64,000 bases of DNA, from NCBI GenBank assembly GCA_031264185.1, contig JAISEL010000035.1, positions 1 through 64,000 of the forward strand. Direction: 5' to 3'. The translations under genes and the position numbers were made by a program. The notes beneath the pieces were generated by a model, which saw nothing but the letters and a program-made list of their open reading frames with translations, searched no databases and was not told the DNA's origin. Each line of letters starts with the position of its first letter. Position 1 is the stretch's first letter. This document shows, piece after piece, positions 26,700 through 62,894 of the stretch. The stretch comes from Deltaproteobacteria bacterium. GTDB lineage: Bacteria; Desulfobacterota; Desulfarculia; Adiutricales; Adiutricaceae.

Positions 26700-26749
26700 A
26701 TTAATCTGATCAAGCTTTGCTATCATGTTAATTATATTGCGGAGTAAGT

Positions 26750-26944
26750 ATGCCTCCCCAAGTAGCAGCTCTTTATCTGGTAATCAGTATGCTTGTCGGC
26801 GTATTAGGCCGTAGATACCGTTTTGGTTTTTGGGGCTATTTTTTTTCTTCTTTGCTCTTGTCGCCCCTGATTGGCTTGCTGCTGGTTATTGCTTCAAAAC
26901 CTTTAAGTCACAGGACTATGTCTCCTAGAGATATGCTAAAGTGA
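26750..26944 (+). CDS. small hypothetical membrane protein (64 aa)
   Basis: Two hydrophobic helices. Status uncertain. Confidence 0.3.
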   Translation: MPPQVAALYLVISMLVGVLGRRYRFGFWGYFFSSLLLSPLIGLLLVIASKPLSHRTMSPRDMLK

Positions 26945-26965
26945 TCATTTCGGGTAAATTTTGCT

Positions 26966-28212: not shown

Positions 28213-28755
28213 ATGTCAGACTCTGAGCCCCAACTTCTCGATCCCCCAGCCACTGCAGCCCCGCCAACGGAGGCTGAAGTGGACAGCATCATCCGTAACC
28301 GCGTCTATGCCTCTCTGGCCGTAGGTCTGGTGCCGGTTCCGATTGCCGATTTAGGCGTGCTGACCACTGTTCAGGTGGAACTCCTCTACCGGCTGAGCAA
28401 GGCCTACAATATTCCCTTCAGCCGCAATTGGGCCAGTAAGGTCCTAGGCATCGTTTTGGGCAGCCTGGCCCCGGTCTTCTTTGCCCCCGGCTTAAGCGGA
28501 CTGCTGCGCTACGTGCCGGTTGTCGGCCAGAGCCTGGGTCTGGTCGGCGGCTCTCTGACCTTCGGCACGGCTACCTACCTGATTGGCCACGCCTTTGCCA
28601 AGCGCTTCGCTAAAGGCCAGGAAATTGACGAAAATGTGGCCGTCTCCATTGGAGAGGAAATCAAGGCCGGATTTGAATCCGGCAAGAAAAAGGTCAAAAG
28701 CCTCTTTTCCCGTCCAAAGAAAGAAGAGGCTGAAGCCGCTGCCGACCAGATTTAG
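28213..28755 (+). CDS. DUF697-like membrane-associated protein
   Basis: ...LAVGLVPVPIADLGVLTTVQVELLYRLSKAYNIP... pattern. GGAGAGG SD before ATG. Confidence 0.45.
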   Translation: MSDSEPQLLDPPATAAPPTEAEVDSIIRNRVYASLAVGLVPVPIADLGVLTTVQVELLYRLSKAYNIPFSRNWASKVLGIVLGSLAPVFFAPGLSGLLRYVPVVGQSLGLVGGSLTFGTATYLIGHAFAKRFAKGQEIDENVAVSIGEEIKAGFESGKKKVKSLFSRPKKEEAEAAADQI

Positions 28756-33114: not shown

Positions 33115-33237
33115 CTGTAGTTAAATTTTAATATAGCTATCTCTTGAAATTGGGTTTATGTACTTTTCTTTAATAGTAATTGTTTTTAATTAGCTATTAT
33201 TTTATCAAATATATAAATAATGGATCAAATAAATTTA

Positions 33238-36200
33238 TGAATGAGATGTCTCTTCTGGAAGAACTTAAATCAATTGCTTTCAGCAATTTTGGGCTTAAAC
33301 CTGAAGAGATTTCTCTTGAGACCGGTATTCTGGAACTGGGTCTTGATTCACTGATGATCATTAAACTGGGCCGGGAAATTGAACGCCGCTTCGGTCTGAG
33401 CATTCCGGCCAGATGGTTTTTTGCTAACAGGCCTTCACTTAGGGAACTGGCCGTCTATCTGGCTGAACATATACCTCAGAGCAGTCCCGCGCCCGGCTCT
33501 CCGGAGAAGAATCCGGAATTGGCCTCTAAACCGGCTTATGATTCGGATTTAAAGTCTGCAGAGACCGGGATTCAGCCCTCCTCAGCCGGAAGTTCGGTTC
33601 TCGGCCCCCGGAAAGATGCAGAAGGGGCGGCTAAGTTCTCCCCGGACAGGAACAGGGCCGGCCGTCAGGCCGCCGCCAGGTTCCCTGAGCCCTGCCGTTC
33701 CCCAAAGCCCCCTCAGTCCTCTCAGGCCTATGACGGCCCTGCCGGGCCTTCCGGAGCCAGTTCCGATTCCGGCGGCGGCTTGACCGCTGACCGGCTGGCC
33801 CTGTTCAAGCTACAGATGGAGGCCATGAATGAGCTGTTCGCCGCTCAATGGCGCGGTCTGGCTGAAGCTCCAGTCAGAAGGGCCGCTGGAGATGATCAGG
33901 CCGGCTCAAGTAACGCCGGTGATCTAAGAGGCGGACACAGTTGCATAAAAAAGGAAGAGTTCCCCCAATCCCCGAAACCGGCTTCGGTGAGCCGTAATTT
34001 TAGAGGCTTCGTTCTGGAGGAAGAGCCGCTGTCGGACGAACAGCTGGCTTTTATCCGGGCCCTGACCGAACGCCATCTGAAAAGGACCCGAAAATCCCGG
34101 GAGCTTCATCAGGCCAGCCAGGCTTTGGCAGACTGGAAATCTTCTCTGCACTACCGTCAGATTTTAGGACAGCTGGCCTATCCTATTGCGGCCCACCGAA
34201 CCTACAGAGGCCGCTTTACTGATGTGGACGGCAATGATTATCTTGATGTCGCTCTGGGCATGGGGGTCAATTTTCTGGGGCACAACCCAGAGTATATAAA
34301 TCAGGCTGTCAGAGGACGTTTGGAAAGGGGCTACGGACTCGGCCCCCAGTGCGATCTGACCGGCCCGGTGGCTTCAGGGATAGCCAAACTGACCGGGCTG
34401 GAGCGGGTTTGCTTTTGCAACACCGGCTCTGAAGCGGTGATGTTTTCCTTAAGGCTGGCCCGGGCCAGGACCAAAAGACCTTTGATTGCTATATTCAACG
34501 GTTCTTACCACGGCACTTATGACGGCATTTTGGCGGAAGACGATCACGGGCGCACGGTGACCTACTCCCCGGGAACCCGACCGGGCATGGTCGAAGATGT
34601 CCTGGTCTTAAATTACGGCTCCGATGAGGCCTTGGAGGCCATTAAAGAAAATGCCGGCCGTTTGGCGGCGGTCCTGGTAGAACCGGTCCAGAGCCGCAAA
34701 CCCGCGCTTCAGCCCCAGTCCTTTTTGAGACGTTTGCGGAAACTGACTGAAGAATTCGGCATAGCCCTGATCTTCGATGAAATGATCAACGGTTTCCGGA
34801 TAGCTCCGGGCGGGGCCCAGGAATTTTTCGGCGTCAGGGCGGATATGGCTCTGTACGGCAAACTTATCGGAGGCGGTCTGCCCATCGGTGTAGTGGCCGG
34901 GGCGGCCAAATGGCTGGACGGCATTGACGGGGGACGCCGGGAGTACGGTTCCCCTTCGCCGGAGGTTATTGTTTTTGGCGGGACCTTTTGCCGGCATCCC
35001 TTAAGTCTGGCCGCTTCAAAGGCTGTCATTGAGCATCTGCTGGAGCAGGGGCCAAAGCTTCAGGGCCGGGTCGCCAAAATGGCCGACGATCTGGCCGCCA
35101 GTCTGAACCTGTGGTTTCAGGACAGCCAGGTGCCATTAAGATTATTTAATTTTGGGCCTCAGTTTATTTTTGAAGGATACGGGCCCTGGTCGGCTCTGGT
35201 TAACCCTTTGGAACTGGATCTGTTTTATCTGCTGCTTTTAGAAAAGGGAGTTTACGTCTGGGAAAGGCGGACTTGCAGCCTGTCGGCGGCGCACACCGCA
35301 GAGGAGTTGGATTTTTTTGCGGCCAAAGTCCGGGAAGCGGTCACGGAAATAAGAGACCGCGGCTTTGAGTTCGGGCCTGATCTGGCCTACGGGGCTCCGA
35401 AACTGCTAAGACCCATGAACTATATTCAAAAACGGTTCTATGCAATTTTTCAGTCCCCTAACGGTCAGGATCCCTATCATCTGACTGTGGGCTTCCGTCT
35501 GACCGGTCAGGTCCGGCCGGATCTTCTGGAAATAGCCCTGGGGCGTCTCATTGAGATTAATGAGGCCTTAAGATCAGACTTTCGGCATATCGGGTCAGAT
35601 TTAGTTTGCTATGCTAAACCTTGGGTGCCGTTTCACCTGATTCAAGAAAAAACAGACCCGAATACTCCCTTAAAATCCTTGGTTGGCCGGTTAACCGAAC
35701 CCTACAACTTGCAGCAGGCTCCTCTCTTTCGGGCCGGCTTATTCGACCGGGGCGAAGATTTCATCTTTATCCTGGATGCCTCCCACCTTATGATCGACGG
35801 CGCCGGATTAGGTCTGATGTTAGGTCAGTTAAATCAGCTGATGAACGGGGAGTCCCTGTCTCAGACTGTAAAATTGGCCGAAGTCGAAGAGGATTTGAAT
35901 CACTATTTGGGCAAGCCTGACAAAACTGCCGGAAACAAAGGGCCAAGTGAGGCTGACCTTAGCTACTGGAGCGAAAAGCTTCAGGGTTTGGAGCCTTTGG
36001 CCTGGCCTTTGGATTTTCCGGCTAAAAGCGGGTCTAAAACCGGCTGCCAGAAATGGTTCGAGGTCAGCGCCCAGCAGCTCCAGAGTTACCGGCAGACCGC
36101 CCGGAAATTCGGTTTGACTCTCAATATGCTCTTAAGCGGCCTGTATGTTCTGACCCTCCACCGCTTTACCGGCTCCTTAAGGCTTTGCGTGGCTTTAGCC

Positions 36201-48200: not shown

Positions 48201-51200
48201 TTAGTTGCCGGTCTGGTTAAAGACTACGGCCTGACCTCCCAGGATCGCTCCATGGTGACCTTCAGTCCCGGGTTCGACGCCTTCGCCTGGGGTGTCTATC
48301 TTTTGCTAGCCGTTGGAGGTCAGGTCCATTTTCCGCCCCGGGATATTCTGACTGATGCGTCCCGGCTGCGGGATTATATGGCGGAAAACTCAGTCACGGT
48401 GGCCAATATGCCTACGGTCCTGGCTGAGGCCATCCAACGGTTGGAACCTCCTCAGTCCCTGAGACTTCTGACTTGCGGCGGCGACAGACTCAGTTTTTAT
48501 CAAAAGCGCCCCTACGCTTTTTACAACGAGTACGGTCCCACGGAAGCGACGGTTTTAGTCACCAAGCACCTGGTGACTGAAACCGCCGCCCCCATTCCCA
48601 TCGGGCGGCCCATCCCCGGGGTTCAGACTCTTATCTTAGGGCCGCATGACGAAATAAGACCTTTTAATATGGCCGGTGAGCTGGTCTTAAGCGGTCCCTG
48701 CCTGGCTTTGGGTTATTTGAGGCGGGAGGATTTAACTCAGGCCAGCTTTGCCGAAAACCCCTGCGCTTTAAAGGCCGGGGCGCTCCGGGAGCCCCGGCCC
48801 TCTCCCAATTTCGATCCCAGCTCCTATCAAACAATCTACCGGACCGGGGATCTGGCCAGAATGGGCCCGGACGGCCTGATTGAGTTTATCGGGCGGATAG
48901 ACAGCCAGGCCAGTATCGGCGGGATAAGAGTCGAACCGGCCGAGGTGGAGGCCAGAATTAAGGATAATCCCCAGGTGGATCGGGCTTTGGTTTTAGCCCG
49001 CAAAGATGCCGCCGGAGACAGTTTTTTAGCGGCCTATATTACGGCCGGCGCAGCCCGAGGGGCCAATTCTGAAAGCCTGGGTTCGGGGGAAGCCTTGATT
49101 AAGACGGTCACTGACCATTTAAGCGCCCATCTGCCTACGGCCTTCAGGCCCAAGTTCATCTGCCTGTTAGACCGGTTCCCTTTGACGGCTAACGGGAAAA
49201 TTGATTATTTGGCCCTCCCGGCGGCCGGTAACGCCCCGGTCGGCTCTGCGGACCCGGAAAAGACGGGGCTCCCCGAATCTTATAAGCCCCGGAGTGCGGT
49301 GGAGGCCAGCGTTTTGGAAGCGTACCGGGAAATTTTGGGGGCAGCGGATGCTGACGGCATAGACCCTGAAGCGGATTTTTTCAGCTTAGGCGGCGATTCC
49401 TTAAAGGCCGTGCGTTTAGCGGCCCGTCTGGAGACAGTCCTGAAGGCGGCCCCTAAGGTGTCGGAACTTATAGGCGGGTTCAGCCTAAAAAAACTCTGCG
49501 AGTCTGTTGAAGGCCGGAAGGCCGGCCGGAAGGAGATTCTTTCCCCTTTAAGGTTAGGCGCTGGTCCGGCTCTGATAATCGTGCCCACTGTGGGCGGCAG
49601 TCTCTGGGCTTACCGGGAGTTTTACCGGAGACTGCCTCAGGACCGTTCTCTCTACGCTTTGGACCCCAATTGGGAGTCAGCGGTTTCAGCCGTTGAGGCG
49701 GTTAATGGGGCCGATAAACTGGCCGCTCTGGTCAGACCCTACGCTGAGGCTGTACTGGAACTCCGCGCTGAGGTGGTTCTCTGCGGCCTGTGTCTGGCCG
49801 GACTGACCGCCTGGGAACTGGGCCGCCAGCTTCTCGACCGGGGGGCTCAGGTCAGATCTCTGTTGTTTTTCAATGCCCGAACCCGCCTTTTGACTGAAGG
49901 GGAGCCGGTTAAAGAAGGCGATTCGCCTCCTGAGGCGATGGCCGAAGAACTTCTGTCTTCCATGCGTCTGTATGAAGGCGCCGAAAAATTCCCTGACCGG
50001 CCGGAAAATTTTATAAATATGAGTTTCCCTGAACACCTCAGACGTTACGCGTCGGCTCAGCTGTCGGCCTGGGGATTTTACCGGCCGCAGCCGATGGATG
50101 TAAAGCTGACTTGCCTCAGGCCTTTGGATTCCTTCGGGCCAAAGTACCTGCCCTTTGAAACCGGCCCCCTGGGCTGGGAAGAGCTGGCCCTGCAGGGTTA
50201 CCGGGAGGTCCGCACCCCGGGTCACCACTATGACCTTTTAAGGCTCCCCGCGGTCAATACTGCGGTCACGGTAGCCGGAGAACTGACCGCCGAGAAGACC
50301 TCCAGACCTGCGGTTCCTCTGACTCCAATCCAAAAGTGGTACTTTGAACTGGGACCAAAGGCCTGGCCCATGTTTCAGAGTGTCGGGCTGGTGAGCCAAG
50401 TCGCCAGGCCGCCGTGGGTTTATCTTCTGGTTTTAGAGGACCTTTTAAAGACCCATCCGATGCTCCGGGCGAGTTTTCCGGAAAATGACGGCGGCGCTGA
50501 GGCCAGGATAACCTCAGATTTTACGGCTTTCACTTTTGAGATATCGGCGGATCGGAATTTAGAAGGACTGACGGAAAGATTCGGCCAGATAGCCCGGAAA
50601 TACTTGCAAAATGCAGATCCCTTAGTCATATTTTTATTGGGCCGGACTGACCAGGGGCAGGACTGTTTTCTTTTGGCCGTCCACCATTTGGTGGTTGATA
50701 ATGTTTCCTGGCGGGTTTTGGAAAGCGACTTTAAGCGGTCTCTTTCGGCTTTGGACGGCCAGGGGGTTTTGGATTATGACCGGGCCAAAAACGGCCTGGC
50801 CCGTCTGCCCAAACCGGAAGCGTCCGGCAGCGTCTTCCGGATTTATGCCCAAAAGCTGTCTTCATTGGCCTTGGACAATGATTTTTTGGCGGCTGAGGCC
50901 GCCTACTGGGGCGGAGCTTTAGAGGCCATGGGGCCGCCTCTGCCTTCTTTAGCGGAGACGCTCCGAAAGGCCCCCGAATTCAGAGGCCTCAGAGTCAGTA
51001 AAACTCCGGAAAAAGCAAGTTTGCAGTTTGAATTAAACAGTTCGGACACTGAGCTTTTTCTGACCGCTCTGGGTCCGGAATTTGGGGCTCGGGAAATGCT
51101 TTTAACGTCCCTGCTGCTGTCGGCCGCTGAGGGTTTCGGAGTTAAGGAGCTGACTTTCTGCCTGGAAGGGCACGGGCGGACCCCTGTTTTCCCGGAAGCG

Positions 51201-51701
51201 GATTTGGCCTCGGCTGTTGGCTGGTTTACGGTTTTGTATCCGGTCCGGCTAAGCTTAGGATCAACCCCCTTGGATACTTTGAAGATCGCGGCCGAAAAAC
51301 TTAGGGCTGTCCCTCATAACGGCATCGGTTACGGCGTTTTAAAATATCTGGCCGGGCAGAATAATCCTGGCTGTCCGCCCGGCTGTTCCGGTCCGGGGGC
51401 TGAACTGCCTAAACTCCCTTGGCTTAAGCGTCCGGCTGACGTTCTGTTTAACTATTTAAGTGAAATTAATTCCGGGGCTGAAGAAACCTCTTCAATAAGT
51501 ATTGAGAGGCTGGGCTCCCCCTACGACAGTCCGGTCACTTTTCCGGCCCAGGGATCTTTGTCCGTAAGCGCTTTTATCGACAGGGGCGCTCTGAAATCCA
51601 CCTGGATTTGGTCTGAGGCGATCAACATTGATCTGCTGAGCTGGGCTGCCGGGTTCCAAGCCAGCCTGCTTGGCTTAGGACGTATTTTAAAGGGCGTTTA
51701 G
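33238..51701 (+). CDS. non-ribosomal peptide synthetase, about 6150 aa: ACP - class III aminotransferase (AMT) - C-A-T - C-A-T - C-A-T - C-A-T - TE(Cys) - C
   Basis: Carrier motif GLDSL (about 33340). AMT PLP-fold with YGKLIGGG (34150-35400). C motifs SHLMIDG (35787), HHLMSDAWS (39199), HHVILDGWS (43018), HHLILDGWS (46494), HHLVVDNVSW (50680). Four A domains each with (Y/F)TSG(S/T)TG(Q/E)PKG, FD(A/V)S, N.YGPTE, YRTGD, K.RG. Four PCP GGDS(V/I/L)(K/G)A motifs. TE with GLCLAG at 49785. Start codon uncertain (33180/33238/33247, all in frame). Confidence 0.95.
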
Positions 51702-51705
51702 GCCG

Positions 51706-52509
51706 ATGAGTCGCTTTTTAGTGTTAGCCGGCCGGCTGGCCCCGGAGCTTTTAGACCGGAATCTAGGCGGTTTGACCAGGCTGTTCGGTTATCTGGCCGA
51801 AGAGCAGACTTTGGCAATTCAAAAAAACCGGCGGCCTCAAGATGCGGCCTTAAGGCTGCTGGTCCGGGTGTTATTGGTTAAAGCCTTAGATCTTAACGGT
51901 TTGGACGGCCTTTCAATACTGCCTGATCTTATCTGGAATGACCGTGGTCAGCCGGAACTGAAAGGAAGCCCTCTGAGGTTAAGCTTCAGCCACTCCTGGC
52001 CTTACGGGGCCTGCGCTGTAGCTTTGTTTCCTGTGGGGGTGGATGTGGAAAGAATCCAGCCATTGGCGGTCGGCGGGGCCGGTTCGGTTTTCTCGGATTC
52101 TGAAGTGCGCCGCATTTCGGGATCCGATGATCCTCAGTCGGAAGCCATCCGTCTTTGGACAGTCAAAGAGTCCGGTCTTAAAGCTCTTGGGGCCGGATTT
52201 TTAGAAGATCCTAAAAGGCTGAAAACTGAACCGGTCTTTAATGAGTCAGCCGGACAAAAGGCGCCGCCAGCGGGGCGGTCGGTTTGGGGCAGTCGGACGA
52301 TCTATTTCGGGCATTTGCCGGTGGACCCAGGCTACTGGCTGTCCTGGGGCGCCTGTCCGGATTTTCAGGAGCCGCCGGTAAATTCTCAGGCCGGTCAAAG
52401 TCTTAAAGCCTCTGAACAGGTCCGGGCCTCTGCCCGTTTTTTCGGGCCGGCCTCCCTTATTTATCTGCCCCGGGTCAGTGAGTATATAATGAACAGACTC
52501 ATAGAGTGA
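51706..52509 (+). CDS. Sfp-type 4'-phosphopantetheinyl transferase
   Basis: Motifs GVDVE and WTVKESGLKALG. Starts 4 nt after the NRPS stop. Confidence 0.85.
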   Translation: MSRFLVLAGRLAPELLDRNLGGLTRLFGYLAEEQTLAIQKNRRPQDAALRLLVRVLLVKALDLNGLDGLSILPDLIWNDRGQPELKGSPLRLSFSHSWPYGACAVALFPVGVDVERIQPLAVGGAGSVFSDSEVRRISGSDDPQSEAIRLWTVKESGLKALGAGFLEDPKRLKTEPVFNESAGQKAPPAGRSVWGSRTIYFGHLPVDPGYWLSWGACPDFQEPPVNSQAGQSLKASEQVRASARFFGPASLIYLPRVSEYIMNRLIE

Positions 52510-52551: not shown

Positions 52552-55500
52552 ATGATTTTTTTGGGTAGGAGTATGAAAGATCTTATATACGTATTTTCCG
52601 GTTTGGGCTCGCAGTGGGCGGGCATGGGGGCTGATCTGATAGATTCCGACCAGGTTTTCACCGAAGCCTTCAGGGAATTCGATTCGAGTTTCCGGGCCTG
52701 CAGCGGCTGGTCCGTTGAGGAAAAGCTGTTCCGCTCTGACGAGCCCGTAGCCTTATCTTACGCCCAGTTCTGGCATCCGGCCATTGTGGCTGTCCAGTAC
52801 GCTCTGTATAAGGCCTGCGAAAACAGACTGCCCAAACCTCAGGCTGTCCTCGGGCACAGCGGCGGAGAGGCGGCGGCCGCTTTAATAGCCGGGGCTTTAA
52901 GCTTGAAAGAGGCGGCCTGTCTGACCTGCGGACACATTAAGCTTATGGAAAAGACCTCTCCCGGCGCACTTATGCATCTGCCCATAAGCTTTTCGGCCGC
53001 TAAGGAGCTGACTGAAGGGACCTCTATAACGGTAGCCGCCGTCAATTCGCCCTCTTCGGTGGTTTTAGCCGGCGACAGCGGGGTTTTAAATGATTTTCTT
53101 TTAACTGAAAATCTGACCGGGACGGCCCGCCTTGTTCCGTTTGACCGCTCTTTTCATTCGCCGGCTTTAGAGCCTTTCGGAGCGGATTTTGAAAAAAATC
53201 TCCAAATAAAACCCCAAAAGGCTAACTTTACATTTATCTCTTCCTTTCTCGCCCGGATTGTCCCTGGCGAGGCTTTAACCCCCGCCTACTGGCGCCGTCA
53301 TGCGGCCGAACCGGTTCGCTTTGATAAAGCCGTAGAACTGTCTTTGTATTTGGGAGCCAAAGGGTTCGTAGATTTTTCCCCCCATCCGATATTCCTTCAG
53401 GCGCTGCACGAGACGGCCAGTCTTCAGGGCCGGAACATCTTTTATGTCAATTTAATGCAGCGGCATCAGAAAAGTCTGCCGGTAATAGCCTCAGCTTTGA
53501 CTAGATTAAAAGAGGCCGGGAGCAAAACGTTCAGCTCTTCTGGGCCTCAGGCCTCTGAAGACCGGGACGGCCCGGAAAACCTGCTCCCGCCCGGAGCCTC
53601 AGATCCGACCCTCCAGGCTGACCTGGAGCTGCCGGGCCTGAACATTCATCAAAGGGCAGCGGCTTTAGAAAAGTTTCTGGTCAGTAAGCTTCACGAACTG
53701 ACCGAAATTCCGGATGACCGGACCGGGGAGACCGCCCTGTGCCCTTTTATGAGTCTGGGTCTGGATTCCCTGAATTTGGTCAGCCTGATTAATGATTTAG
53801 CTTTAAAGACCGGCCTGACTTTGGCCCCGTCTTTGGTGTTCAGCTACCCGGAAGCCAGATCGCTGGCCAGGTATTCAGCTGAAGCCATGGAACTCCCCAA
53901 GTCTGATTCCGGTGAGACCGGCTGCTTTTTAAAATCCTCCGCTGCCCAGTCCTCTTCCGATCGGCGCCCGGAAGTTAAGGCCGGTCTGACCGGCCGCGAA
54001 CCTCTGGCCGTGGTTGGCCTGGCTTTTCGGTTTCCGGGCGGGGCTGTGGATGGTGAGAGTTTTTGGCGGATACTTAAAGAGGGCAGGGATGCGATCGGAA
54101 TAATTCCCAAAAGCCGCTGGAATGCAGAGGATTTTTATCATCCTGACCGTGAACACCCAGGGACCATGTACACCCGGTCCGGCGGCTTTATTGAGGATAC
54201 TTTCCAGGGATTTGACGCTAATTTTTTCGGTCTGGCCGGCCGTGAGGCCAAGCAGCTCGACCCCCAGCAGCGTCTTTTGCTGGAACTCAGCTGGGAGGCC
54301 TTTGAAGACGGCTCAATTGATCCTCTGAAGTGGAAGAATAAGCGGGCCGGGGTGTTTTTAGGCATGACCAACAGCGAATACAGCCGGGCCCACCGCGATT
54401 CTTTTGACCGGGACCTCATTGATGCCTATTCCCTGACCGGAACCACTATGAGCGGGGCCTGCGGCCGGCTGTCTTATTTTTACGGCTTTAATGGTCCCTG
54501 CTTTACGGTAGATACCGCCTGTTCTTCCAGCTTGGTCGCCTTAGCCCAGGCCGGTCAGAGTCTGAGAGCCGGGGAATCGGATTTAGCTTTGGTCGGGGCG
54601 GTTTCTTTGATGCTCATTCCGGAAATGCACATCTGCTTCACCAAGTTGGGGGCCATCAGCAGCGACGGGCGCAGCAAGGCCTTCGATGACGGGGCTGACG
54701 GTTACGGCCGGGGCGAAGGGGCGGCGGTAGTCCTGCTGAAAAGGCTGGGGGACGCCGAAAAAGCCGGGGATCGGATTTTAGGGACTATTAAGGGGCACTA
54801 CCTTAATCAGGACGGACGGAGCAACGGTCTGACCGCACCCTCTGGTCTGGCCCAGCAGGAGCTGATCAAAGGCTCTTTGGCGGACGCCGGACTGCTGCCT
54901 TCGGAGATTGATTATGTGGAAGCCCACGGAACCGGCACCTCTTTAGGCGATCTGGTGGAGCTGGAGGCCTTGTCGGCGGCCTACGGCCCCGGGCGCCTGA
55001 AGCCTTTGCTGATCGGCTCAGTCAAGGCCAATATCGGGCACTTAGAACCGGTGTCCGGCCTGGCTTCCCTGATTAAAGTCCTACTGGCCATGAAGCACGG
55101 TCAGATTCCGGCTAATATTCACTTAAAAAGCCCTAACCGCCGCTTTGACTGGGCCAAAGGCCGGATTGCGGCCCCCACCTCTTTGGTAAGCTGGCCGGAT
55201 AATGAGTCCGGGGCCTTAAAAAGGGCCGGCCTGAGCGCTTTCGGTTTTTCCGGGGTCAACGGGCATCTGATAGTCGAAGAATACCGCCGAACGGAATCAG
55301 CCGCAAGCCTGAAAGGGCAGTCTGCGGACAGTGTGGCTTCTGAGCCGCCCATCCTTCTCCTTTTGTCGGCCAAGAGTCAGAAAGCCCTGGAAGAACTGGC
55401 CTTTAAGGTCGCCCAAAGGCTCAGAAACTGCGATCGCCGGGCAGCCCTGAACTTAGCCTACAGTCTGGCCAATCACCGGCCGCACTTCGAATTTCGGGCA

Positions 55501-58500
55501 GCCTTAGTCGGCAGCTCTCCTTCGGAATTAGCGGACCGGCTAGCCAGTATCCGGGTCCGTAAAACCAGAGGTCCAAGACCTCTCGGCCTTTTATTTACCG
55601 GTCAGGGCTCCCAATGCCCCGGTTTAGGCTGGGAGCTGTATAAAGCTTACCCGGTTTTTCAGGAAAGTCTGGATTCTGCCCGGAAGCTCTTGCTGCCCCG
55701 GGGTATTGATCCGATTAGTTTAATTAACCCTGACCTCCCTCCCGAGGCGCTGACCCCGACTCAGATTTCCCAGCCTTTGATTTGCGCGGTCAGTTTGGCT
55801 TTGTACGATCTTTGGACTTATGTGGGCCTGACTTTTGACAGTGTCCTAGGGCACAGCGTCGGCGAGTTCCCGGCTTTAGCCGCCAGCGGGATCCTGGATC
55901 GCCGGACCGCAGTGGATCTGGTCTGTCAAAGAGGCCTTTTAATGGCCCAGGCCCCGGACGGTTCCATGACAGCGGTGTTCGCTTCAGTTGCGGAGATAGA
56001 GCCGGTTTTAAAGGACTTTCCGGATGTCAGGATCGCGGCCGATAACGCAGTCTCTTCTGTAACTTTATCCGGTCCCGCTGACTCTTTAAGCCGGTTGAGC
56101 GGGTATCTGGAGAAAGAAAAGATCAGTTCAGTGCCTCTGAAGGTTTCGGCGGCTTTTCATTCTCCGGCCATGCAGGAGGCCGCTGAAAAGTTTGACGAGT
56201 ATATCTCCCTCAAGTACGGTCAGAACAGCCCCGACTCTTTTTCTGACCTGGAAAAAACGGGCCGGCGGGGAGAATTTGGCTTCCGTCAGTCCAGGGAATC
56301 TCCGGCGCCTCTCAGCCCCTGCGGACTCCTGCAGCCGAAGGGCAGCCAGTATCCGGTTTTTATCTCCAGCCTTTTGGCTCAACCGGCTTATTCGGTCGAT
56401 TCCGGCTATTTTGGCCGACAGATCGCCTCACCGGTACGTTTTCGGGAGGCCAGTTCCGTTATGGCCCAAAGAGTCAGTCTGGCCGTGGAGGCCGGTCCCT
56501 CGGGAGCCCTTTCCGGGCTGGTGGCCCAGGGCGGGCAGATATTAGGACTCAGCACTCTGAAGCCCGGCCGTTCGGCTCTGGAGAGCTTTTTGGTCGCAGC
56601 CTCGGAACTGTATCAGGAGGGGTTTGATCTTGACTGGGGCAAGGTCTGGGAACCTCTTCCCCAAGGCCGGACCAGTCTGCCTGCCTATCCCTTCCAAAGG
56701 GAGCGCTTCTGGCTGGAAGTCCGGCACTCCCCGCCGCACTTTCCGGCCCCGAAAGCCGGAATGGCCGCCGCTGAAGCTGATGAGGCCCCCCGAAAAAGGC
56801 ACCCCGTTTTAGGCCGCCTCATCAAAAGTCCGGCTCTGGGCAAAGCCTCGGTCTTTGAAACCGTCTTCAATGAAGAAGGACCTAGGTTTCTCTGGGAGCA
56901 CCGCATCCTGGGGCGGGCCGTCAGTCCGGCCGCCGGGCATGCGGCCATGGTCTTAGCGGCGGCGGAAGCTCTGCGCGGCCGGGCGGTCTGCGAATTGAAG
57001 GAGGTCAGCTTTACCCAGCCTTTAGTGATAGGTCCTCGGGAGGAACGTCTGGTTCAGGTCATTGTCGATAATCCCCAGGATGACTTAAGCGCCTTTTCTT
57101 TGGTCAGTTGCGGAAAAAATGCTTCTGAGTTTGTCACCCATGCGGCTGGTTTTATTAGTTTTGCAGTCCCAGAAAAGCCCAAAAATAATCCGGAGGCCGT
57201 AAAACAGCGGCCTCAGACCATGACCGTGGACAGTTACTGCAGCGCTTTCGCTGACTACGGGTACGGCTTAGCCCCGGACTTCTGGCGGCTGTCTTCAATT
57301 TTTGTCGACGGCCCGGAAAATTACTGCCAGGTGGAAGCCAGAAGACACACCCCCTCAGAAGCCGGTCACGTCATTTATCCGGGCTCTTTAGACAGTGTCT
57401 TTCAAACCACTATGCCGGCCGTAATTAATGAGGCCGTACCTTTTATGGTCGCCAATAACGGCCTTTTTGTCCCTCTGTTCATGGAAAGTCTGAGTTTGTG
57501 GGCCCAGGTTCCTGAAAAGCTTTTTTGTCACGGCCTGACGAAGTTCAGCGCATCCCCTCTGGGCATCACCAGTTCCGTGACGGCTTATGACCGGACCGGG
57601 GAGCCGGTCCTGGCTGTCAGATCCCTTTATCTGCCCCTGACCAGTCAAAAGGTTTTTTACAGGCGGCCGCCTTTGACCCCGGCCCCGGTTTTTGGCCGTG
57701 ATTCAGGAACCGCTGAGGACCAATCCCCGCTGCGTTTTTATCTGGAGAAATGGCAGAAGGCAGATCTGTCAGCGGCAAAAAAAGTTACTCAGCTGAGCCG
57801 TGAAACTGTCAGCTGCGATAATCTGCCTGACCTGAAAGATCGGGCGCTTGAAGTCATCAGTCTGGGCCGTTTCCTGGCTCAGGGCTCTGAGGCCGGGGTT
57901 TTAGCCGGCCGGGATAAAAGCCGCCGGAATTTCACCGGTTATTCAGCCGAAGCTTCCTCCCGGCTGACGTTATCGGCTGACTGCGATATTGTCTTACTGG
58001 CTCCTGCCGGTCAGACGGAGATCTCCGCCGAGCTGCCCTTCAGAGAGCTTGCCCTCTTCAATGAATGCCTGGCTTATGTAAAAGTCCTCTTAAAAAGCCC
58101 GTATAAGCACCGGATACATTTGGTCACCGCACGGGCCAGAGTCGTTGACTGCATAGAGCATCCGGACAGCGGCGGCCGCAATGAGCCGGTCTCTTTGCAG
58201 GGCGCCAGCCTCATCGGCTTAGGCCGGACTCTGGCTTTGGAAAGACCGGATCTCTGGGCCGGGCAGCTGGATATATCTGGGGACAGCCGGGAAGATGCTC
58301 TGGAGATTATCAGACGCTTAAATAATGAACTGTCCGGTGAGCCTTACGAACTGGCTTTTCGGGGCGGGGTTTTTTACGAGCCTTTCTTATTAAATCATCA
58401 GGCGCCCTCCGGCTTGGATCTCCCTGAAGCCCTTAAAGACCATAAAGACAATAATGTCCAGGGAATTCAGGTCATCACCGGGGCCAACGGCGCCTTAACC

Positions 58501-59769
58501 CGAAAACTGGCTGAACATTTAGTCGGCAGAGGCGCCCGGGAGCTAGCCTTAATCAGCCGGGAGGGCTTATCCGGCGAGTCTTTGCAGCTGGCTGAGGAGT
58601 TAAGGGCCAGGGGCGTTACAGTTCTGGATTTAAACGCTGATGTCACGGTTTTTGGGGAATTGAGCCAGGCTCTGGCCTCAGCCAGAGAGGCAGGTGCGAT
58701 AAAGGGGATATGGCATCTGGCCGGGACTCTGGCGGATGGGCTGATTGAGGCTATGTCCGAGGAGAGGGTCCTTAAGGTCTTAGGGCCCAAGATTTTTGGA
58801 GCCGTTAATCTCCATCTGGCAACTTTAAAAGATCCCCTGGACTATTTTACGCTTTTTTCTTCCGTAGCCGCTCTTTTGGGATCAGCCGGTCAGGCCGGCT
58901 ATGTCTCCGCCAACTTTTTTATGGAGGCCATTGCCCGTTACCGGCGGCTGCAGAAATTGCCCTCGGCCGCTCCTGAGTGGGGCCCACTGGCCGGTTCCGG
59001 CATGGCCGGCAGTGCCGTGCGCGGTGATAACCTCAGGCGTCAGGGTTTTATTCCGCTGGAGACTTTTGAGTTCTTCCGGGTTTTGGATTCAGTCTTGGGG
59101 CAAAAATCGGAGGACTCAGAGGTCCTTGGGGTGTTCGGGGCTGTGAAGATGGACCTGGAAAAATTTTTCCGGCACCCGGAACGGCGCCGGGACCGGCGCC
59201 TTAAGTCCATTATCCCCCGGCCGGCCAAGACCGGCGGACCAGGGAACGGGTCGGGAGACCGATCCCGCCGCGCCCCCGGGGACGGTGTAAACGACGGGTT
59301 AGCCTTAGCTTTAAGCCAGTTAAATCTGGCAGGGGACCGGGGGCCCGTTCTGCAGGAACTGACGGAACTGGCCGCCGATCTTTTAGGCTTCGCTCCTCAG
59401 GATATCGATCCGCAAAAACCTTTAAGCGACTACGGCTTTGACTCCCTGATGACGGTTTCCCTGCGCAACCGGCTGGGCAGCGCTTTAGGCCGCAGCGTTC
59501 CGGTATCTTTAGCCTTCGAGCACCCGACAGTTTCGGCTATGACCGACTGGCTGGCTTTAAATTTTGGCCCGGCCTCCGGTGAGGCGGCCGGCGGCCTGGG
59601 GGTTGCCGGATCCTCAGAATCCGACCGGCAGGACCAGCCGTACCTGCCGGATAAAACCGATCGGCCTGACCGGTTTGACCGGACTGCCCCCCCGCTGGCT
59701 CCACTCGGAGGGGCGATTAGTGTCGATGCCCTGATGTCGGACATAGAAAAGCTTTTGGATAATCAATGA
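52552..59769 (+). CDS. type I polyketide synthase: loading AT-ACP + module KS-AT-DH-KR-ACP
   Basis: AT1 GHSGGE (about 52850). ACP LGLDSL (about 53760). KS DTACSSSLVAL / EAHGTGT / NIGHLE. AT2 GHSVGE with AAFHS (malonyl-type). DH HRILGRAVSPAAGH. KR GANGALTRKLA. ACP GFDSLMTV. Alternative start ATG 52573. Confidence 0.95.
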   Translation: MIFLGRSMKDLIYVFSGLGSQWAGMGADLIDSDQVFTEAFREFDSSFRACSGWSVEEKLFRSDEPVALSYAQFWHPAIVAVQYALYKACENRLPKPQAVLGHSGGEAAAALIAGALSLKEAACLTCGHIKLMEKTSPGALMHLPISFSAAKELTEGTSITVAAVNSPSSVVLAGDSGVLNDFLLTENLTGTARLVPFDRSFHSPALEPFGADFEKNLQIKPQKANFTFISSFLARIVPGEALTPAYWRRHAAEPVRFDKAVELSLYLGAKGFVDFSPHPIFLQALHETASLQGRNIFYVNLMQRHQKSLPVIASALTRLKEAGSKTFSSSGPQASEDRDGPENLLPPGASDPTLQADLELPGLNIHQRAAALEKFLVSKLHELTEIPDDRTGETALCPFMSLGLDSLNLVSLINDLALKTGLTLAPSLVFSYPEARSLARYSAEAMELPKSDSGETGCFLKSSAAQSSSDRRPEVKAGLTGREPLAVVGLAFRFPGGAVDGESFWRILKEGRDAIGIIPKSRWNAEDFYHPDREHPGTMYTRSGGFIEDTFQGFDANFFGLAGREAKQLDPQQRLLLELSWEAFEDGSIDPLKWKNKRAGVFLGMTNSEYSRAHRDSFDRDLIDAYSLTGTTMSGACGRLSYFYGFNGPCFTVDTACSSSLVALAQAGQSLRAGESDLALVGAVSLMLIPEMHICFTKLGAISSDGRSKAFDDGADGYGRGEGAAVVLLKRLGDAEKAGDRILGTIKGHYLNQDGRSNGLTAPSGLAQQELIKGSLADAGLLPSEIDYVEAHGTGTSLGDLVELEALSAAYGPGRLKPLLIGSVKANIGHLEPVSGLASLIKVLLAMKHGQIPANIHLKSPNRRFDWAKGRIAAPTSLVSWPDNESGALKRAGLSAFGFSGVNGHLIVEEYRRTESAASLKGQSADSVASEPPILLLLSAKSQKALEELAFKVAQRLRNCDRRAALNLAYSLANHRPHFEFRAALVGSSPSELADRLASIRVRKTRGPRPLGLLFTGQGSQCPGLGWELYKAYPVFQESLDSARKLLLPRGIDPISLINPDLPPEALTPTQISQPLICAVSLALYDLWTYVGLTFDSVLGHSVGEFPALAASGILDRRTAVDLVCQRGLLMAQAPDGSMTAVFASVAEIEPVLKDFPDVRIAADNAVSSVTLSGPADSLSRLSGYLEKEKISSVPLKVSAAFHSPAMQEAAEKFDEYISLKYGQNSPDSFSDLEKTGRRGEFGFRQSRESPAPLSPCGLLQPKGSQYPVFISSLLAQPAYSVDSGYFGRQIASPVRFREASSVMAQRVSLAVEAGPSGALSGLVAQGGQILGLSTLKPGRSALESFLVAASELYQEGFDLDWGKVWEPLPQGRTSLPAYPFQRERFWLEVRHSPPHFPAPKAGMAAAEADEAPRKRHPVLGRLIKSPALGKASVFETVFNEEGPRFLWEHRILGRAVSPAAGHAAMVLAAAEALRGRAVCELKEVSFTQPLVIGPREERLVQVIVDNPQDDLSAFSLVSCGKNASEFVTHAAGFISFAVPEKPKNNPEAVKQRPQTMTVDSYCSAFADYGYGLAPDFWRLSSIFVDGPENYCQVEARRHTPSEAGHVIYPGSLDSVFQTTMPAVINEAVPFMVANNGLFVPLFMESLSLWAQVPEKLFCHGLTKFSASPLGITSSVTAYDRTGEPVLAVRSLYLPLTSQKVFYRRPPLTPAPVFGRDSGTAEDQSPLRFYLEKWQKADLSAAKKVTQLSRETVSCDNLPDLKDRALEVISLGRFLAQGSEAGVLAGRDKSRRNFTGYSAEASSRLTLSADCDIVLLAPAGQTEISAELPFRELALFNECLAYVKVLLKSPYKHRIHLVTARARVVDCIEHPDSGGRNEPVSLQGASLIGLGRTLALERPDLWAGQLDISGDSREDALEIIRRLNNELSGEPYELAFRGGVFYEPFLLNHQAPSGLDLPEALKDHKDNNVQGIQVITGANGALTRKLAEHLVGRGARELALISREGLSGESLQLAEELRARGVTVLDLNADVTVFGELSQALASAREAGAIKGIWHLAGTLADGLIEAMSEERVLKVLGPKIFGAVNLHLATLKDPLDYFTLFSSVAALLGSAGQAGYVSANFFMEAIARYRRLQKLPSAAPEWGPLAGSGMAGSAVRGDNLRRQGFIPLETFEFFRVLDSVLGQKSEDSEVLGVFGAVKMDLEKFFRHPERRRDRRLKSIIPRPAKTGGPGNGSGDRSRRAPGDGVNDGLALALSQLNLAGDRGPVLQELTELAADLLGFAPQDIDPQKPLSDYGFDSLMTVSLRNRLGSALGRSVPVSLAFEHPTVSAMTDWLALNFGPASGEAAGGLGVAGSSESDRQDQPYLPDKTDRPDRFDRTAPPLAPLGGAISVDALMSDIEKLLDNQ

Positions 59770-62700
59770 CCAGTCAGCCTCCGTCTAGAGAACAGCAGTT
59801 AGAACTGGCTCTGGGTCAGGCCAGAGAGGTAATCCGCGCCCTGACTTTGGAGCGGACAAAAGAGGCTGAAGTTTTCCGCTCCGCTTTTGAGCCGGTGGCG
59901 GTCATCGGGCTGGATTTGCTTTTCCCGGCCGGAGACCGGGACGCTCAGGGGCTGGCCGAGTTCCACTCTTCTTTAATAGAGGGGGTTGTAAGTGTCAGAG
60001 ATATTCCCGAGGCCCGGCGAAAACTGTGGCAGTCTGTAAGCCCGGAAAATTCCTTTCAGCTGGCCAGGGCTTCTATTCTGAAGCGGGAGCCATTTAAAGC
60101 CGATCTGGGGCGCTTTAATCTGACCCCGGCGGAGGCCCGCCTGATGGATCCCCAGACTTTTCTGGCTTTGGAGACCGTAACCCGGGCCCTGGATAACGCC
60201 GGGCTGGACCCGGAAACGCTGGCCGGAACCAATACCGCCGTTTACTTCGGCAAAAGCGGCTTTGACTTTTTTGTGGACTATTTAGGCCGCCCTGAAAACC
60301 GGTTTGCCGATGACCCTTACAGTTTAACCGGTAACATGGCCAGCACCCTGCCGGGGCGGATCTCGTATCACTTTGACTTTTTAGGGCCCTCGGTCTTTGT
60401 GGAAACGGCCTGCTCGACCGGTTTGGTGGCCGTGGCTCAGGCCGTAAGAGCCTTGCATTCCGGGGCGGCCGATCTGGCGGTGGCCGGCGCGGTCAACCTT
60501 ATTTTGGGGCCGACTCCCTCCGGCTGGCTGGCGGCCATGAAGGCCCTGGCTCCGGACGGACTTTGCCGGGCCTTCGGAGCTGACGCCAGCGGTTTCGGGC
60601 GGGGCGAGGGGTCTGCGGCAGTGATTCTGACTCCTTTAAGCCGGGCTTTAGCCAAAGGGGACCGGATTCTGGCTGTCATAGAAGGAATAGGGGAGGGCTG
60701 TGACGGCCGGAGTTCCGGTTTTACGGTGACCTCGTCTCTGGCTCAGAAGATGGTCTTGAGGAAAGCCCTGAAGGAGGCCGGGCTGGAGCCTTCGGAGGTA
60801 GGTTATGTGGAAACCCACGGGACAGGCACGCCCTTAGGGGACCCTATTGAGGTGGAAAGTTTAAAGGAGGTTTACGGGGTGAAAAGGCCTTACCCTCTTT
60901 TGATCGGTTCAGTTAAATCCAATTTTGGGCATTTGGAAGCCGTAGCTGGCCTGGCCTCTTTAATAAAAGCGATCGGTCTGTTAAGAGAGAACCAGATTCC
61001 GCCCAGTCTCCACTGTGAGGAACTGAATCCCCTGATCGATTTTGGAGGGCAAGTGGAAGTCAATCGGGGCCTCAGAGCGTGGCCTGACGGATACGCCAGA
61101 AAAATAGCCGGGGTCAGTTCCTTTTCCCTGACCGGGGCTTTGGTGCATTTGCTGGTCTCGGAACCGCCCTCAGCAAGGTCCAAGTACCGTCTTGATCTGT
61201 CAGTGACTGAGACTGAGGCGGCAGGACCAAATGTCCGTTCAGCCAATCTTTATTTGTCCGCTCCGACCCCCGGGGCTTTAAGGGCGGAAGTCCGTCTTTA
61301 CCGGGAAAAATTATTAGCCGGGGCCGATTTTACTGAACTGGCCAGAGGATCATCCCGCCGGCCGGCCGGCCGGGAGCGTCTGGTTCTGACTTCTGATTCC
61401 GGCCGGGCGGCCTCGGATTTGGCCTCTTTTTTAAGGACAGAAAATAATAGCCGGTTGTCTGCCGGACGGGCTGAAAAACTGAGCCTGCTGTGGGTCTTTG
61501 GCGGACAGGAGCCGCTTGCCCCCGGCCTGAGCCGGGAACTGTCTGACTGCTTTCCGGTCTTTAAGGAAAGGCTGCTGGCCTTGGAACAGCGGGCTTTTCC
61601 GGTACTGGGCTTGAAAATCACTGAGATCATGTTCCAAAATTACTTAACCGGCTCCAAAGACTTTAACCGCAGCCAAGCCTTTAAGCCGGCCGTCCTGAGT
61701 GAGGTCTGCCTGTTCGCCTTTCAGGCGGCCACGGCGGCTTTGCTTTCGTCGCAGGGCCTGAAACCTGAGGCGGTTATGGGACACGGCCAGGGCGAGTATG
61801 CGGCTTTATCAGCCAGCGGACTGTACGGCTGGGAGACGGGTCTGGATCTGGTTATGACCAGGGCAAAGATGGCCTCGGAGCTGGAATCGGAGGCCCTGAA
61901 AGGCCCTAAAGTCGCCTGGGCCACTGTTTTGGCCTCCGCAGCGGAAGTAAATTTTGACCGGCCCCCTCAGGCCTATGTCATTGCGGAAAACGGACCGGCC
62001 AGCGTTACGGTAGCCGCTCCGGCGGAAGTTTTAAAGATCTGGCTGCAACGGTTAGCCGGCCGGGGCTTGGCGGTCCAGGGGCCGGCCTCCCAGCCCTTAC
62101 AGTCCTCCAGACTCTACCATTCGCCTTTTTGTGAGCCACTGTTAGGAGAATTCAGCCGGTATCTGAGACAAATCAAGTTCAATCGCTTAAAAATCCCGTA
62201 TCTGTCCGCTTCTGCGGCCTCTTATCTGGACCAGACCTACGAAAATTGGGCCGATTATCTGGCTGCCCAGACCTGTGGGCCGGTTCTTTTTCATCAGGCG
62301 CTCTTAAAAGTCCGCCAGAAAACAGGGCTGGAGATCGGCCCGGCTCAAAGTCAGATCCCGGAAGGTCTTCCGGATTTTATCCGGCTGACTCCGGTCAGCC
62401 CCGGCCGGGAGTTAGAGCAGTACCTTTTGGCTATGGGGCAGCTGTGGAGCCGAGGCGGGACAGCCAAATCCAACCCCCCCGGCCCCGTAAGGCCGGAAAT
62501 CCTCCCCCCAATTCTTTTTGAAGTTCAGGATCTGTCCAGTCCCTTTGCCGCAGAGATGACTGGGGCTGCCGGGGCGGCGGGATCATCAGGTTCAAATGCT
62601 GCAAATGATCATGAGCTTTTTGGAGGCGGCCTGAAGGCTGATCCTCTTCCGGCGGCAGCTTCCGGGGAGTCCTCAGAGAGTTTGGTCACCGAAGTTCCGC

Positions 62701-62894
62701 TGACCGGTGTTCTGCCTGAGGCTGCCGGCTCTGAGGCGGCCCTGGAACTGGCGGAGTTGCAGCTGTTCCATTTTAATCGTGTCTGCCGGCTTCAGATGAA
62801 GGCGGTTAATGAGGCCTGCGGAGACGGTAACGGCGATAATGACTGCGAGGCTGAGGAATCGGTCAGATCAAGCGGTTTTAACAGTCCGGGCTGA
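59766..62894 (+). CDS. stand-alone KS-AT didomain PKS protein without ACP; AT active-site Ser replaced by Gly (GHGQGE)
   Basis: KS ETACSTGLVAV / ETHGTGTPLGD / NFGHLEA (catalytic Cys and His present). AT region aligns, but GHSxG reads G-H-G-Q-G (Gly codon 61785-61787). The C-terminal about 200 aa are acidic/Ala-rich with no DSL carrier motif. ATGA overlap with the upstream PKS. Confidence 0.9.
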   Translation: MTSQPPSREQQLELALGQAREVIRALTLERTKEAEVFRSAFEPVAVIGLDLLFPAGDRDAQGLAEFHSSLIEGVVSVRDIPEARRKLWQSVSPENSFQLARASILKREPFKADLGRFNLTPAEARLMDPQTFLALETVTRALDNAGLDPETLAGTNTAVYFGKSGFDFFVDYLGRPENRFADDPYSLTGNMASTLPGRISYHFDFLGPSVFVETACSTGLVAVAQAVRALHSGAADLAVAGAVNLILGPTPSGWLAAMKALAPDGLCRAFGADASGFGRGEGSAAVILTPLSRALAKGDRILAVIEGIGEGCDGRSSGFTVTSSLAQKMVLRKALKEAGLEPSEVGYVETHGTGTPLGDPIEVESLKEVYGVKRPYPLLIGSVKSNFGHLEAVAGLASLIKAIGLLRENQIPPSLHCEELNPLIDFGGQVEVNRGLRAWPDGYARKIAGVSSFSLTGALVHLLVSEPPSARSKYRLDLSVTETEAAGPNVRSANLYLSAPTPGALRAEVRLYREKLLAGADFTELARGSSRRPAGRERLVLTSDSGRAASDLASFLRTENNSRLSAGRAEKLSLLWVFGGQEPLAPGLSRELSDCFPVFKERLLALEQRAFPVLGLKITEIMFQNYLTGSKDFNRSQAFKPAVLSEVCLFAFQAATAALLSSQGLKPEAVMGHGQGEYAALSASGLYGWETGLDLVMTRAKMASELESEALKGPKVAWATVLASAAEVNFDRPPQAYVIAENGPASVTVAAPAEVLKIWLQRLAGRGLAVQGPASQPLQSSRLYHSPFCEPLLGEFSRYLRQIKFNRLKIPYLSASAASYLDQTYENWADYLAAQTCGPVLFHQALLKVRQKTGLEIGPAQSQIPEGLPDFIRLTPVSPGRELEQYLLAMGQLWSRGGTAKSNPPGPVRPEILPPILFEVQDLSSPFAAEMTGAAGAAGSSGSNAANDHELFGGGLKADPLPAAASGESSESLVTEVPLTGVLPEAAGSEAALELAELQLFHFNRVCRLQMKAVNEACGDGNGDNDCEAEESVRSSGFNSPG

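Follow-up and report, generated by a model that had tools for sequence, protein, structure and literature searches.

In the cyanobacterial toxin pathways, McyE and NdaF are hybrid modules of polyketide synthase (PKS) and nonribosomal peptide synthetase (NRPS) in which a ketosynthase (KS), an acyltransferase (AT), an acyl carrier protein (ACP), an aminotransferase (AMT) and condensation (C), adenylation (A) and thiolation (T) domains are arranged in the order KS-AT-ACP-AMT-C-A-T. In the iturin-family lipopeptides, MycA, ItuA and BmyA have a KS-ACP-aminotransferase-C region that is loaded with malonyl in trans by FenF, ItuD and BmyD, and aminotransferases of the MycA type make the β-amino acyl chain that starts the peptide (PMC3039948). 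Starting subunits in which a carrier protein (CP) is followed by an aminotransferase, in the order CP-aminotransferase-C-A-CP (CP-PLP-C-A-CP), have been catalogued for Xenorhabdus nematophila and a Streptomyces strain (PMC3870968). Here we analyze a hybrid gene cluster in a stretch of 64,000 nucleotides, hereafter the window (positions 1 to 64,000 of the forward strand of contig JAISEL010000035.1, GenBank assembly GCA_031264185.1, a Deltaproteobacteria bacterium), and in particular its gene at 59766-62894. The product of this gene, which we call KS-AT0, consists of a KS and of an AT in which glycine replaces the nucleophilic serine, and it has no ACP. We propose, with a probability of about 0.72, that KS-AT0 is the ketosynthase half of a β-amino extension module that is split over two polypeptides, with a vestigial AT and with malonyl supplied in trans.

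A ketosynthase without a carrier and a carrier without a ketosynthase

A first-pass annotation of the window had described an ACP-less KS-AT protein with an intact Cys/His/His triad, and both points were borne out. The open reading frame (ORF) encodes 1042 amino acids (aa), in which Pfam identified ketoacyl-synt (aa 42-294, E = 6.6e-59), Ketoacyl-synt_C (aa 302-418, E = 1.7e-37) and Acyl_transf_1 (aa 576-858, E = 6.5e-24), with no domain besides KS and AT above noise. The triad can be read directly from the sequence: Cys216 in ETACSTG (codon 60411-60413), His351 in ETHGTG (codon 60816-60818) and His389 (codon 60930-60932), which shares the motif KSNFGH with Lys384. The triad is kept in the KS of all aligned family members (see below), and of the KS positions with a conservation of 90% or more among its AT-intact relatives, KS-AT0 retains 88%. 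An identical protein of 1042 aa is found in the separately built Logan assembly SRR14710921, and a search of 5.8 billion proteins recovered it from NCBI, JGI and Logan sources. We modelled KS-AT0 with AlphaFold on the basis of 33 family sequences (mean predicted local distance difference test, pLDDT, of 81.7; predicted template modelling score, pTM, of 0.76), and the folds of the KS and of the AT are both confident. The top Foldseek matches of this model were 2hg4, 8cuy and 4mz0 (E down to 5e-73, target-normalised TM scores of 0.74-0.84). It superposes on the KS-AT didomains of DEBS module 5, Pks13 and CurL, and its KS-AT linker, AT fold and post-AT linker are arranged like those of the DEBS and CurL didomains. 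Known KS-AT didomains (CurL 4mz0, DEBS) were also among the top matches when the sequences of the PDB were searched with phmmer.

The genes of the cluster are ordered NRPS, phosphopantetheinyl transferase (PPTase), PKS and KS-AT0 (Table 1). The upstream PKS (52552-59769, 2405 aa) has the domain order AT-ACP-KS-AT-DH-KR-ACP, where DH is a dehydratase and KR a ketoreductase. Its TGA overlaps the ATG of KS-AT0 as ATGA; the translational coupling noted at first pass is thus real, and tight coupling was seen again in homologous loci. The NRPS consists of an ACP, an aminotransferase, a C domain (aa 745-1164), four A-T units and a thioesterase. Its ORF was called from a TTG at 33180, and the carrier domain starts right after an ATG at 33237, which fits an independent gene call of 6154 aa. 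This ATG is the likely start of the gene, and with it the NRPS has essentially no N-terminal extension before the ACP. The phosphopantetheine serine of this ACP (33348-33350) lies in GLDSLM, a motif of the PKS type, and the four later carriers have GGDS(V/I/L). In other words, the NRPS begins with a PKS-type carrier that is followed by an aminotransferase but not preceded by a KS.

The KS-AT0 gene and the ACP-AMT-C region belong to separate polypeptides, encoded by genes that are 26 kb apart and not in colinear order. Nevertheless, the domains of the cluster add up. There are two KS domains, one loading ACP and two extension ACPs, of which one is the N-terminal carrier of the NRPS. As KS-AT0 is the only unassigned KS and the NRPS ACP the only orphan carrier, this arithmetic supports the action of the former on the latter. 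Such a role in trans had been suggested at first pass and is further supported by the same pairing in Desulfoplanes formicivorans, whose cluster has a PPTase and an NRPS of 5430 aa that starts with PP-binding, Aminotran_3, Condensation and AMP-binding domains.

KS-AT0 belongs to a family of similar proteins. About 35 proteins of 790-1120 aa were recovered, all but one with KS and AT only and no carrier, and the homologues that were aligned (~790-1120 aa) lack an ACP in 33 of 33 cases. Their hosts are metagenome-assembled genomes (MAGs) of Deltaproteobacteria and Desulfovibrionaceae, D. formicivorans, Accumulibacter, a Betaproteobacteria MAG, Rhodospirillaceae, Latescibacterota and Lentisphaerae; the cluster family as such was found in MAGs of Desulfobacterota, Accumulibacter, Lentisphaerae and Latescibacterota. 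In six other loci, the KS-AT gene comes directly after an AT-ACP-KS-AT-DH-KR-ACP synthase, with an overlap of 1-8 nt between the two genes in four of the six and a gap of 3 nt in a fifth. It is usually followed by genes for an ATP-binding cassette (ABC) exporter, a type II thioesterase and a small conserved protein. This recurrence across homologous loci, including that of D. formicivorans, suggests that the split between KS-AT and ACP-aminotransferase is ancestral to the family. We found no description of this cluster family, or of pairs of an ACP-less KS-AT and an aminotransferase, in open-access text, which held general precedents only.

One might argue that the KS does not elongate at all and, like the KS0 domains of trans-AT systems, hands the chain unextended to the NRPS ACP. 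Neither malonyl nor an AT would then be needed, which would explain why the loss of the AT was tolerated in a cluster without a dedicated trans-AT gene. We consider this highly improbable. Both catalytic histidines and Lys384, which are required for decarboxylative condensation, are conserved, whereas known KS0 domains typically lack the HGTGT histidine. The aminotransferase needs a β-keto substrate, and the upstream DH-KR module gives an enoyl chain. Finally, the AT-intact sisters of KS-AT0 show that the use of an extender unit is ancestral.

Decay of the acyltransferase domain

The nucleophile motif of the AT is GHGQGE (aa 672-677), and the glycine in place of the serine, Gly674, is encoded by GGC at 61785-61787, exactly as the first-pass annotation had reported. 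Its remark that the domain aligns well was overstated. The AT is recognised, but with 85 bits, compared with a sum of 287 bits for both ATs of the adjoining PKS. In AT-intact relatives, 75 positions of the AT reach a conservation of at least 90%; of these, 46 (61%) are still found in the window protein and 29 are lost. Its GQGSQ motif has become GQEPL and its VSHAFH motif SSRLYH, while Gln581, His673, Arg699 and His785 are still present.

To place this AT among its relatives, we compared the 33 aligned members of the family. The motifs GHS(I/V)GE, GQGSQ and (H/Q/L)(A/S)FH(C/S) and the arginine are kept in 28 of them and not in the other five, whose nucleophile motifs are GHGQGE in the window protein (P0001), GFGLGE in P0018 and P0019, GQGRGE in P0052 and GRSLGH in P0005. 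In a neighbour-joining tree of the KS domain, built without support values, these five AT-degenerate proteins form one clade, sister to the AT-intact P0002 and then to P0003. Judging from these sequences, a single loss of the AT in the clade is the parsimonious reading, although it is not proven. Clade mates of the window protein keep 33-40% of the conserved AT positions and AT-intact relatives 95-100%, such that the window protein has the least decayed AT of the five. The four others have large deletions in the AT and have lost the pocket residues equivalent to Gln581, Arg699 and His785, with the KS and the tail kept. Within the clade, KS identity is about 56% (with values of 52-71%), and the AT has an identity of about 29% with ~86 gapped columns. 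For comparison, AT-intact pairs of similar KS divergence have an AT identity of 49% and ~3 gapped columns.

These data bear on whether Gly674 might be a sequencing or assembly error, AGC having been read as GGC, in which case the AT would be active and would itself load the NRPS ACP. In favour of an error, the sequence stems from a metagenome assembly, one G/A transition would be enough to bring back the serine, and His673, Arg699, His785 and Gln581 are kept in a confidently predicted AT fold. Yet we give this explanation next to no weight: the identical protein comes from the independent Logan assembly, the 29 changed positions include both GQGSQ and VSHAFH, and the four closest relatives by KS are also devoid of the nucleophile or shredded in the AT. 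Hence, the decay across the clade and the identical Logan assembly point to an evolutionary loss of the serine and make a base-call error very unlikely.

Judged by its residues, the AT domain is a vestige, dead by loss of the serine and of many conserved positions. Its fold is probably retained as a structural frame of the KS dimer, made of the KS-AT linker, the AT body and the post-AT linker. Alternatively, the AT without serine might have been repurposed as a non-catalytic module, e.g., a landing pad for a trans AT or for malonyl-ACP. The malonyl-binding residues Arg699, His785 and Gln581 of the window protein, its confident AT fold, and the larger share of conserved positions that it keeps relative to its clade mates would all fit such a role. 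We nevertheless regard it as unlikely, since the other four members, with their large deletions and without the pocket residues, still keep KS and tail. This argues against a function of the AT pocket being selected across the clade.

The dead AT could also be the first step of pseudogenisation, with the gene or the whole cluster decaying and making no product. Loss of the AT removes the sole route to malonyl loading within the module, and the lineage is known from metagenome contigs alone and has no known product. This possibility seems improbable, because all five proteins have a full-length ORF, the Cys/His/His triad, 79-90% of the conserved KS positions and a C-terminal helix, and because the other cluster ORFs within the window are intact, including the 18.5-kb NRPS gene without internal stop. 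Moreover, the clade is old, as judged from the KS identities within it, which suggests that KS and tail remained under selection long after the death of the AT. Conservation of the triad, of the reading frame and of the C-terminal helix in all five proteins thus indicates that they still work without an AT.

Two AT-intact sister clusters (L004:5-3371 and L008:1-3304) have genes for a 3-hydroxyacyl-CoA dehydrogenase, a free ACP, an acyl-CoA dehydrogenase and a HAD/FkbH-like protein directly upstream of the PKS. Extender units in the form of hydroxymalonyl- or methoxymalonyl-ACP are made with such a four-gene set. No set of this type is present in the window cluster, and the loss of the AT may correlate with a change of extender unit.

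Malonyl supply and the terminal helices

If the AT of KS-AT0 is dead, malonyl must come in trans. The second AT of the upstream PKS (AT2) has GHSVGE at aa 1100 (55849-55866), the conserved arginine and AAFHS, and is of the malonyl type. In all seven clusters compared, the carboxylate-binding arginine of the first, loading AT (AT1, GHSGGE at 52852-52869) is replaced by His, Gln or Ala. Loading ATs without this arginine are typical of loaders of monocarboxylic starters, and AT1 probably loads such a starter directly, without a KSQ domain. We scanned window ORFs and the 9.4 kb that follow KS-AT0 for a discrete AT gene or an extra ACP gene and found neither, and a supplier of either kind was discarded for these regions. 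This leaves AT2 as the sole malonyl-type AT of the cluster, and malonyl would be loaded in trans by AT2 or by a housekeeping FabD. The loading of MycA by FenF in mycosubtilin synthesis is a precedent for trans-loading of an ACP that precedes an aminotransferase domain (PMC3039948). The upstream PKSs of clusters with a degenerate AT are ~100-230 aa longer than those of AT-intact clusters. We considered a compensating extra domain as the cause and rejected it, as the alignment shows linker expansions only.

What follows the AT had been described at first pass as an acidic tail rich in Ala and Gly, without a carrier. The absence of a carrier was confirmed by profile hidden Markov models: Pfam gave no PP-binding match in the last 184, 252 or 624 aa of KS-AT0 even at E<=10, and NCBIfam matched just the end of the AT, together with a chance DnaX-like match to low-complexity sequence. 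In the AlphaFold model, aa 931-988 and 1019-1042 are disordered and aa 990-1018 form a single helix, with no four-helix bundle in the tail. A cryptic ACP in the tail is ruled out by these three analyses. The description of the tail was incomplete in that it also contains this helix, which is conserved in the family and is followed by an acidic end. The helix motif L-x3-Q-x3-F-x3-C-x2-Q-x3-L is common to the 33 aligned members, including all five with a degenerate AT, and stands at the same distance from the C-terminus in all of them. A search of representatives with aa 480-1042 found no close relative of the region comprising the degenerate AT and the tail, giant multi-AT synthases dominating the results by score summation. 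Between the AT and the tail lies a post-AT linker, which in canonical KS-AT didomains packs back onto the KS.

From its sequence, the disordered tail is probably a flexible tether and the C-terminal helix a docking element, for which the linker helix between ACP and aminotransferase of the NRPS may be the partner. A profile of the KS-AT helix, when searched against a set of 123 sequences, gave a best E of 3e-5 at the equivalent linker position of ACP-AMT proteins, compared with a best E of 0.67 among 85 long-PKS controls.

Taken together, this leads us to propose the following path for the split module. A monocarboxylic starter would be built up to a short 2-enoyl chain by the upstream synthase. 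KS-AT0 would dock with its N-terminal helix to the C-terminus of this synthase (...ISVDALMSDIEKLLDNQ), and Cys216 would take over the chain. The KS would then condense it decarboxylatively with malonyl on the NRPS's N-terminal ACP, where it would have been placed in trans, most likely by AT2 or FabD. By analogy with MycA (PMC3039948), the aminotransferase adjoining this ACP would turn the β-keto group into a β-amine, after which the first C domain would begin a four-module peptide that is ended by the thioesterase. Tail and C-terminal helix would tether KS-AT0 to its partner, and the helix may pair with the linker helix of the NRPS. The product of the cluster is probably a short cyclic peptide capped by a β-amino acid and exported by an ABC/RND system, where RND stands for resistance-nodulation-division.

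Several observations weigh against this proposal. The similarity of the two helices in the window is weak (E ~0.01). The NRPS partner lies beside the KS-AT gene in two loci only, those of the window and of D. formicivorans; no NRPS occurs within 10 kb in the Lentisphaerae locus L007, and the remaining homologous contigs end or do not extend to the position of the NRPS. A cis-AT that serves a second ACP on another polypeptide is unusual, and we detected no adaptation of AT2, the added length of the PKS being linker expansion. Finally, Gln581, His673, Arg699 and His785 are kept in the window protein, which makes a residual or altered binding function of its AT conceivable. One could go further and suppose that the two helices are a previously undescribed docking pair that tethers a trans KS, whether its AT is alive or not, to a carrier on another megasynthase, and that AT2 of the AT-dead clade routinely loads two ACPs, one of them on another protein. 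We hold this extension to be tentative and rather doubtful. If true, nature would here provide an example of a cis-AT that moonlights as a trans-AT.

Cluster setting and comparison with known systems

Table 1. Positions of the KS-AT0 gene, its parts and the cluster features discussed in the text, in window coordinates.
Feature	Position	Strand	Basis
KS-AT0 gene (ACP-less, 1042 aa)	59766..62894	+	ORF with ATG start; Pfam domain content
Long N-terminal helix, aa 8-40, presumed docking helix	59787..59885	+	AlphaFold (helix)
Ketosynthase domain, aa 42-470	59889..61175	+	Pfam, alignment, residue check
Degenerate AT domain, aa 575-860; Gly674 replaces the Ser nucleophile	61488..62345	+	Pfam, alignment, AlphaFold, Foldseek
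Post-AT linker, aa 861-925, ...RPEILPPILFEVQDL	62346..62540	+	Alignment with canonical PKSs; DEBS/CurL model match
Ala/Gly/Ser/Glu-rich low-complexity linker, aa 931-988	62556..62729	+	pLDDT <50; no Pfam match at E<=10
C-terminal amphipathic helix, aa 990-1018, EAALELAELQLFHFNRVCRLQMKAVNEAC, putative docking element	62733..62819	+	Alignment, AlphaFold (helix)
AT2 of upstream PKS, GQGSQ aa 1015 to AAFHS aa 1200, putative trans-loading AT	55594..56160	+	Pfam, motifs
NRPS ORF, 6173 aa, 18.5 kb, no internal stop	33180-51701	+	ORF, Pfam
NRPS N-terminal PKS-type ACP (PP-binding aa 29-93), proposed in-trans carrier	33264..33458	+	Pfam, motif
ACP-to-aminotransferase linker helix of NRPS, LALFKLQMEAMNELFAAQW, candidate docking partner	33795..33851	+	Helix profile, E ~0.01 (weak)
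Class-III aminotransferase of NRPS, aa 336-648	34185..35123	+	Pfam Aminotran_3, E = 4.2e-39
Sfp-type PPTase gene, between NRPS and PKS	51706..52509	+	Pfam ACPS, E = 4.9e-12

Past the end of the window, the same contig continues with genes for a cyclic-peptide-type ABC exporter, a type II thioesterase, a protein of 170 aa, an RND pump and a DUF697 protein. The 170-aa protein (L001:15810-16322, ~2.7 kb past the window end) has an N-terminal hydrophobic segment and several cysteines. It has no Pfam or NCBIfam match; five clusters of the family conserve it, at 35-41% identity, immediately behind the type II thioesterase. At the other end, directly upstream of the NRPS, a protein of 1292 aa (29159-33037) combines a fold of β-lactamases and penicillin-binding proteins (aa 99-383) with a C-terminal autotransporter barrel. 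A gene of the β-lactamase family is likewise found near the start of a homologous ACP-AMT-C-A NRPS (L010). The autotransporter may belong to the cluster, e.g., for peptide processing or self-protection.

The whole cluster is flanked by DUF697 paralogues of 52% identity (28213-28755 in the window and L001:21474-22034), and the GC content is ~42-45% in the flank and ~55% inside the cluster. These brackets and the rise in GC suggest that the cluster is a horizontally acquired island. Genes of the Band_7/SPFH family and for an ABC substrate-binding protein adjoin it both in the window (25509-28075) and in a MAG labelled as Betaproteobacteria (L008:16360-18543), with identities of 43% and 30% between the two loci.

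The component principles of the system we propose, namely split modules, dead domains, trans-loading and docking helices, are all already known, and our finding leaves the understanding of such enzymes unchanged in principle. What is distinctive is the cut between AT and ACP out of colinear order, together with a vestigial AT and a family-specific terminal helix. Split modules and trans complementation of dead domains are what PKS and NRPS engineers try to build by hand. The family offers a natural series in which the AT is alive, freshly dead (the window protein) or shredded, with the same KS and the same tail helix. As all members share these two elements, the series reveals which parts of a KS-AT didomain can be lost and which serve its structure. 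Should the pair of helices prove a genuine docking code, PKS and NRPS parts could be joined with it.

Among known systems, several can be set aside. The comparison with enediyne or iterative KS-AT proteins proposed at first pass did not hold up: an enediyne PKS (PKSE) has KS-AT-ACP-KR-DH-PPTase on one protein, and KS-AT0 has KS and AT only, in a modular PKS-NRPS context. A trans-AT PKS was ruled out, as the window ORFs scanned and the 9.4 kb beyond KS-AT0 showed no discrete AT gene and the upstream PKS has two intact integrated ATs. In the prodiginine pathways (PigJ-PigH, RedX-RedN), an ACP-less KS condenses onto malonyl held by the N-terminal ACP of a separate protein with a pyridoxal phosphate-dependent domain. 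PigJ has a second KS-like domain and no AT, and PigH carries an α-oxoamine synthase, with no class-III aminotransferase followed by an NRPS. The PigJ model NF053555 was among the NCBIfam matches to KS-AT0, in the KS region only and with 125 bits, far under its cut-off of 900; KS-AT0 was hence rejected as a PigJ.

Related cuts and fusions exist in the databases. Fused AT-ACP-AMT relatives of the ACP-AMT region of the window are common, and free-standing ACP-aminotransferase proteins are numerous in metagenomes. In an unrelated cluster (L009:5479-12079), a FAAL-ACP-KS-AT protein ends at the post-AT linker and is followed by a separate ACP-aminotransferase protein of 692 aa. As this cluster is unrelated, the cut between KS-AT and ACP-AMT has arisen more than once. 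Unlike the window family, its KS-AT protein has no tail and no terminal helix, and no nucleophile motif of the GHSxG type was matched in it.

ATs without the serine have been noted as rare in working assembly lines, those for bengamide, desertomycin, conglobatin and also gephyronic acid (PMC9301873). As in KS-AT0, the AT fold is kept without the GHSxG serine and presumed inactive. However, these ATs sit in complete modules with an ACP, whereas that of KS-AT0 is part of a stand-alone protein without ACP, and its decay can be traced across a clade. The iturin family shares with the window cluster a KS-ACP-aminotransferase-C interface without a working AT of its own. There, the AT is absent, a dedicated trans-AT gene is present, and KS, ACP and AMT are on one polypeptide; in the window, the AT is vestigial and no discrete AT gene was found. 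McyE and NdaF share with the window module the condensing KS, the carrier, the class-III aminotransferase and the C domain, and the predicted chemistry is the same. In contrast to them, the window module is divided, by a cut between its AT and its ACP, over two proteins whose genes lie 26 kb apart, its AT is inactive, and the window family has a C-terminal helix in place of the covalent link.

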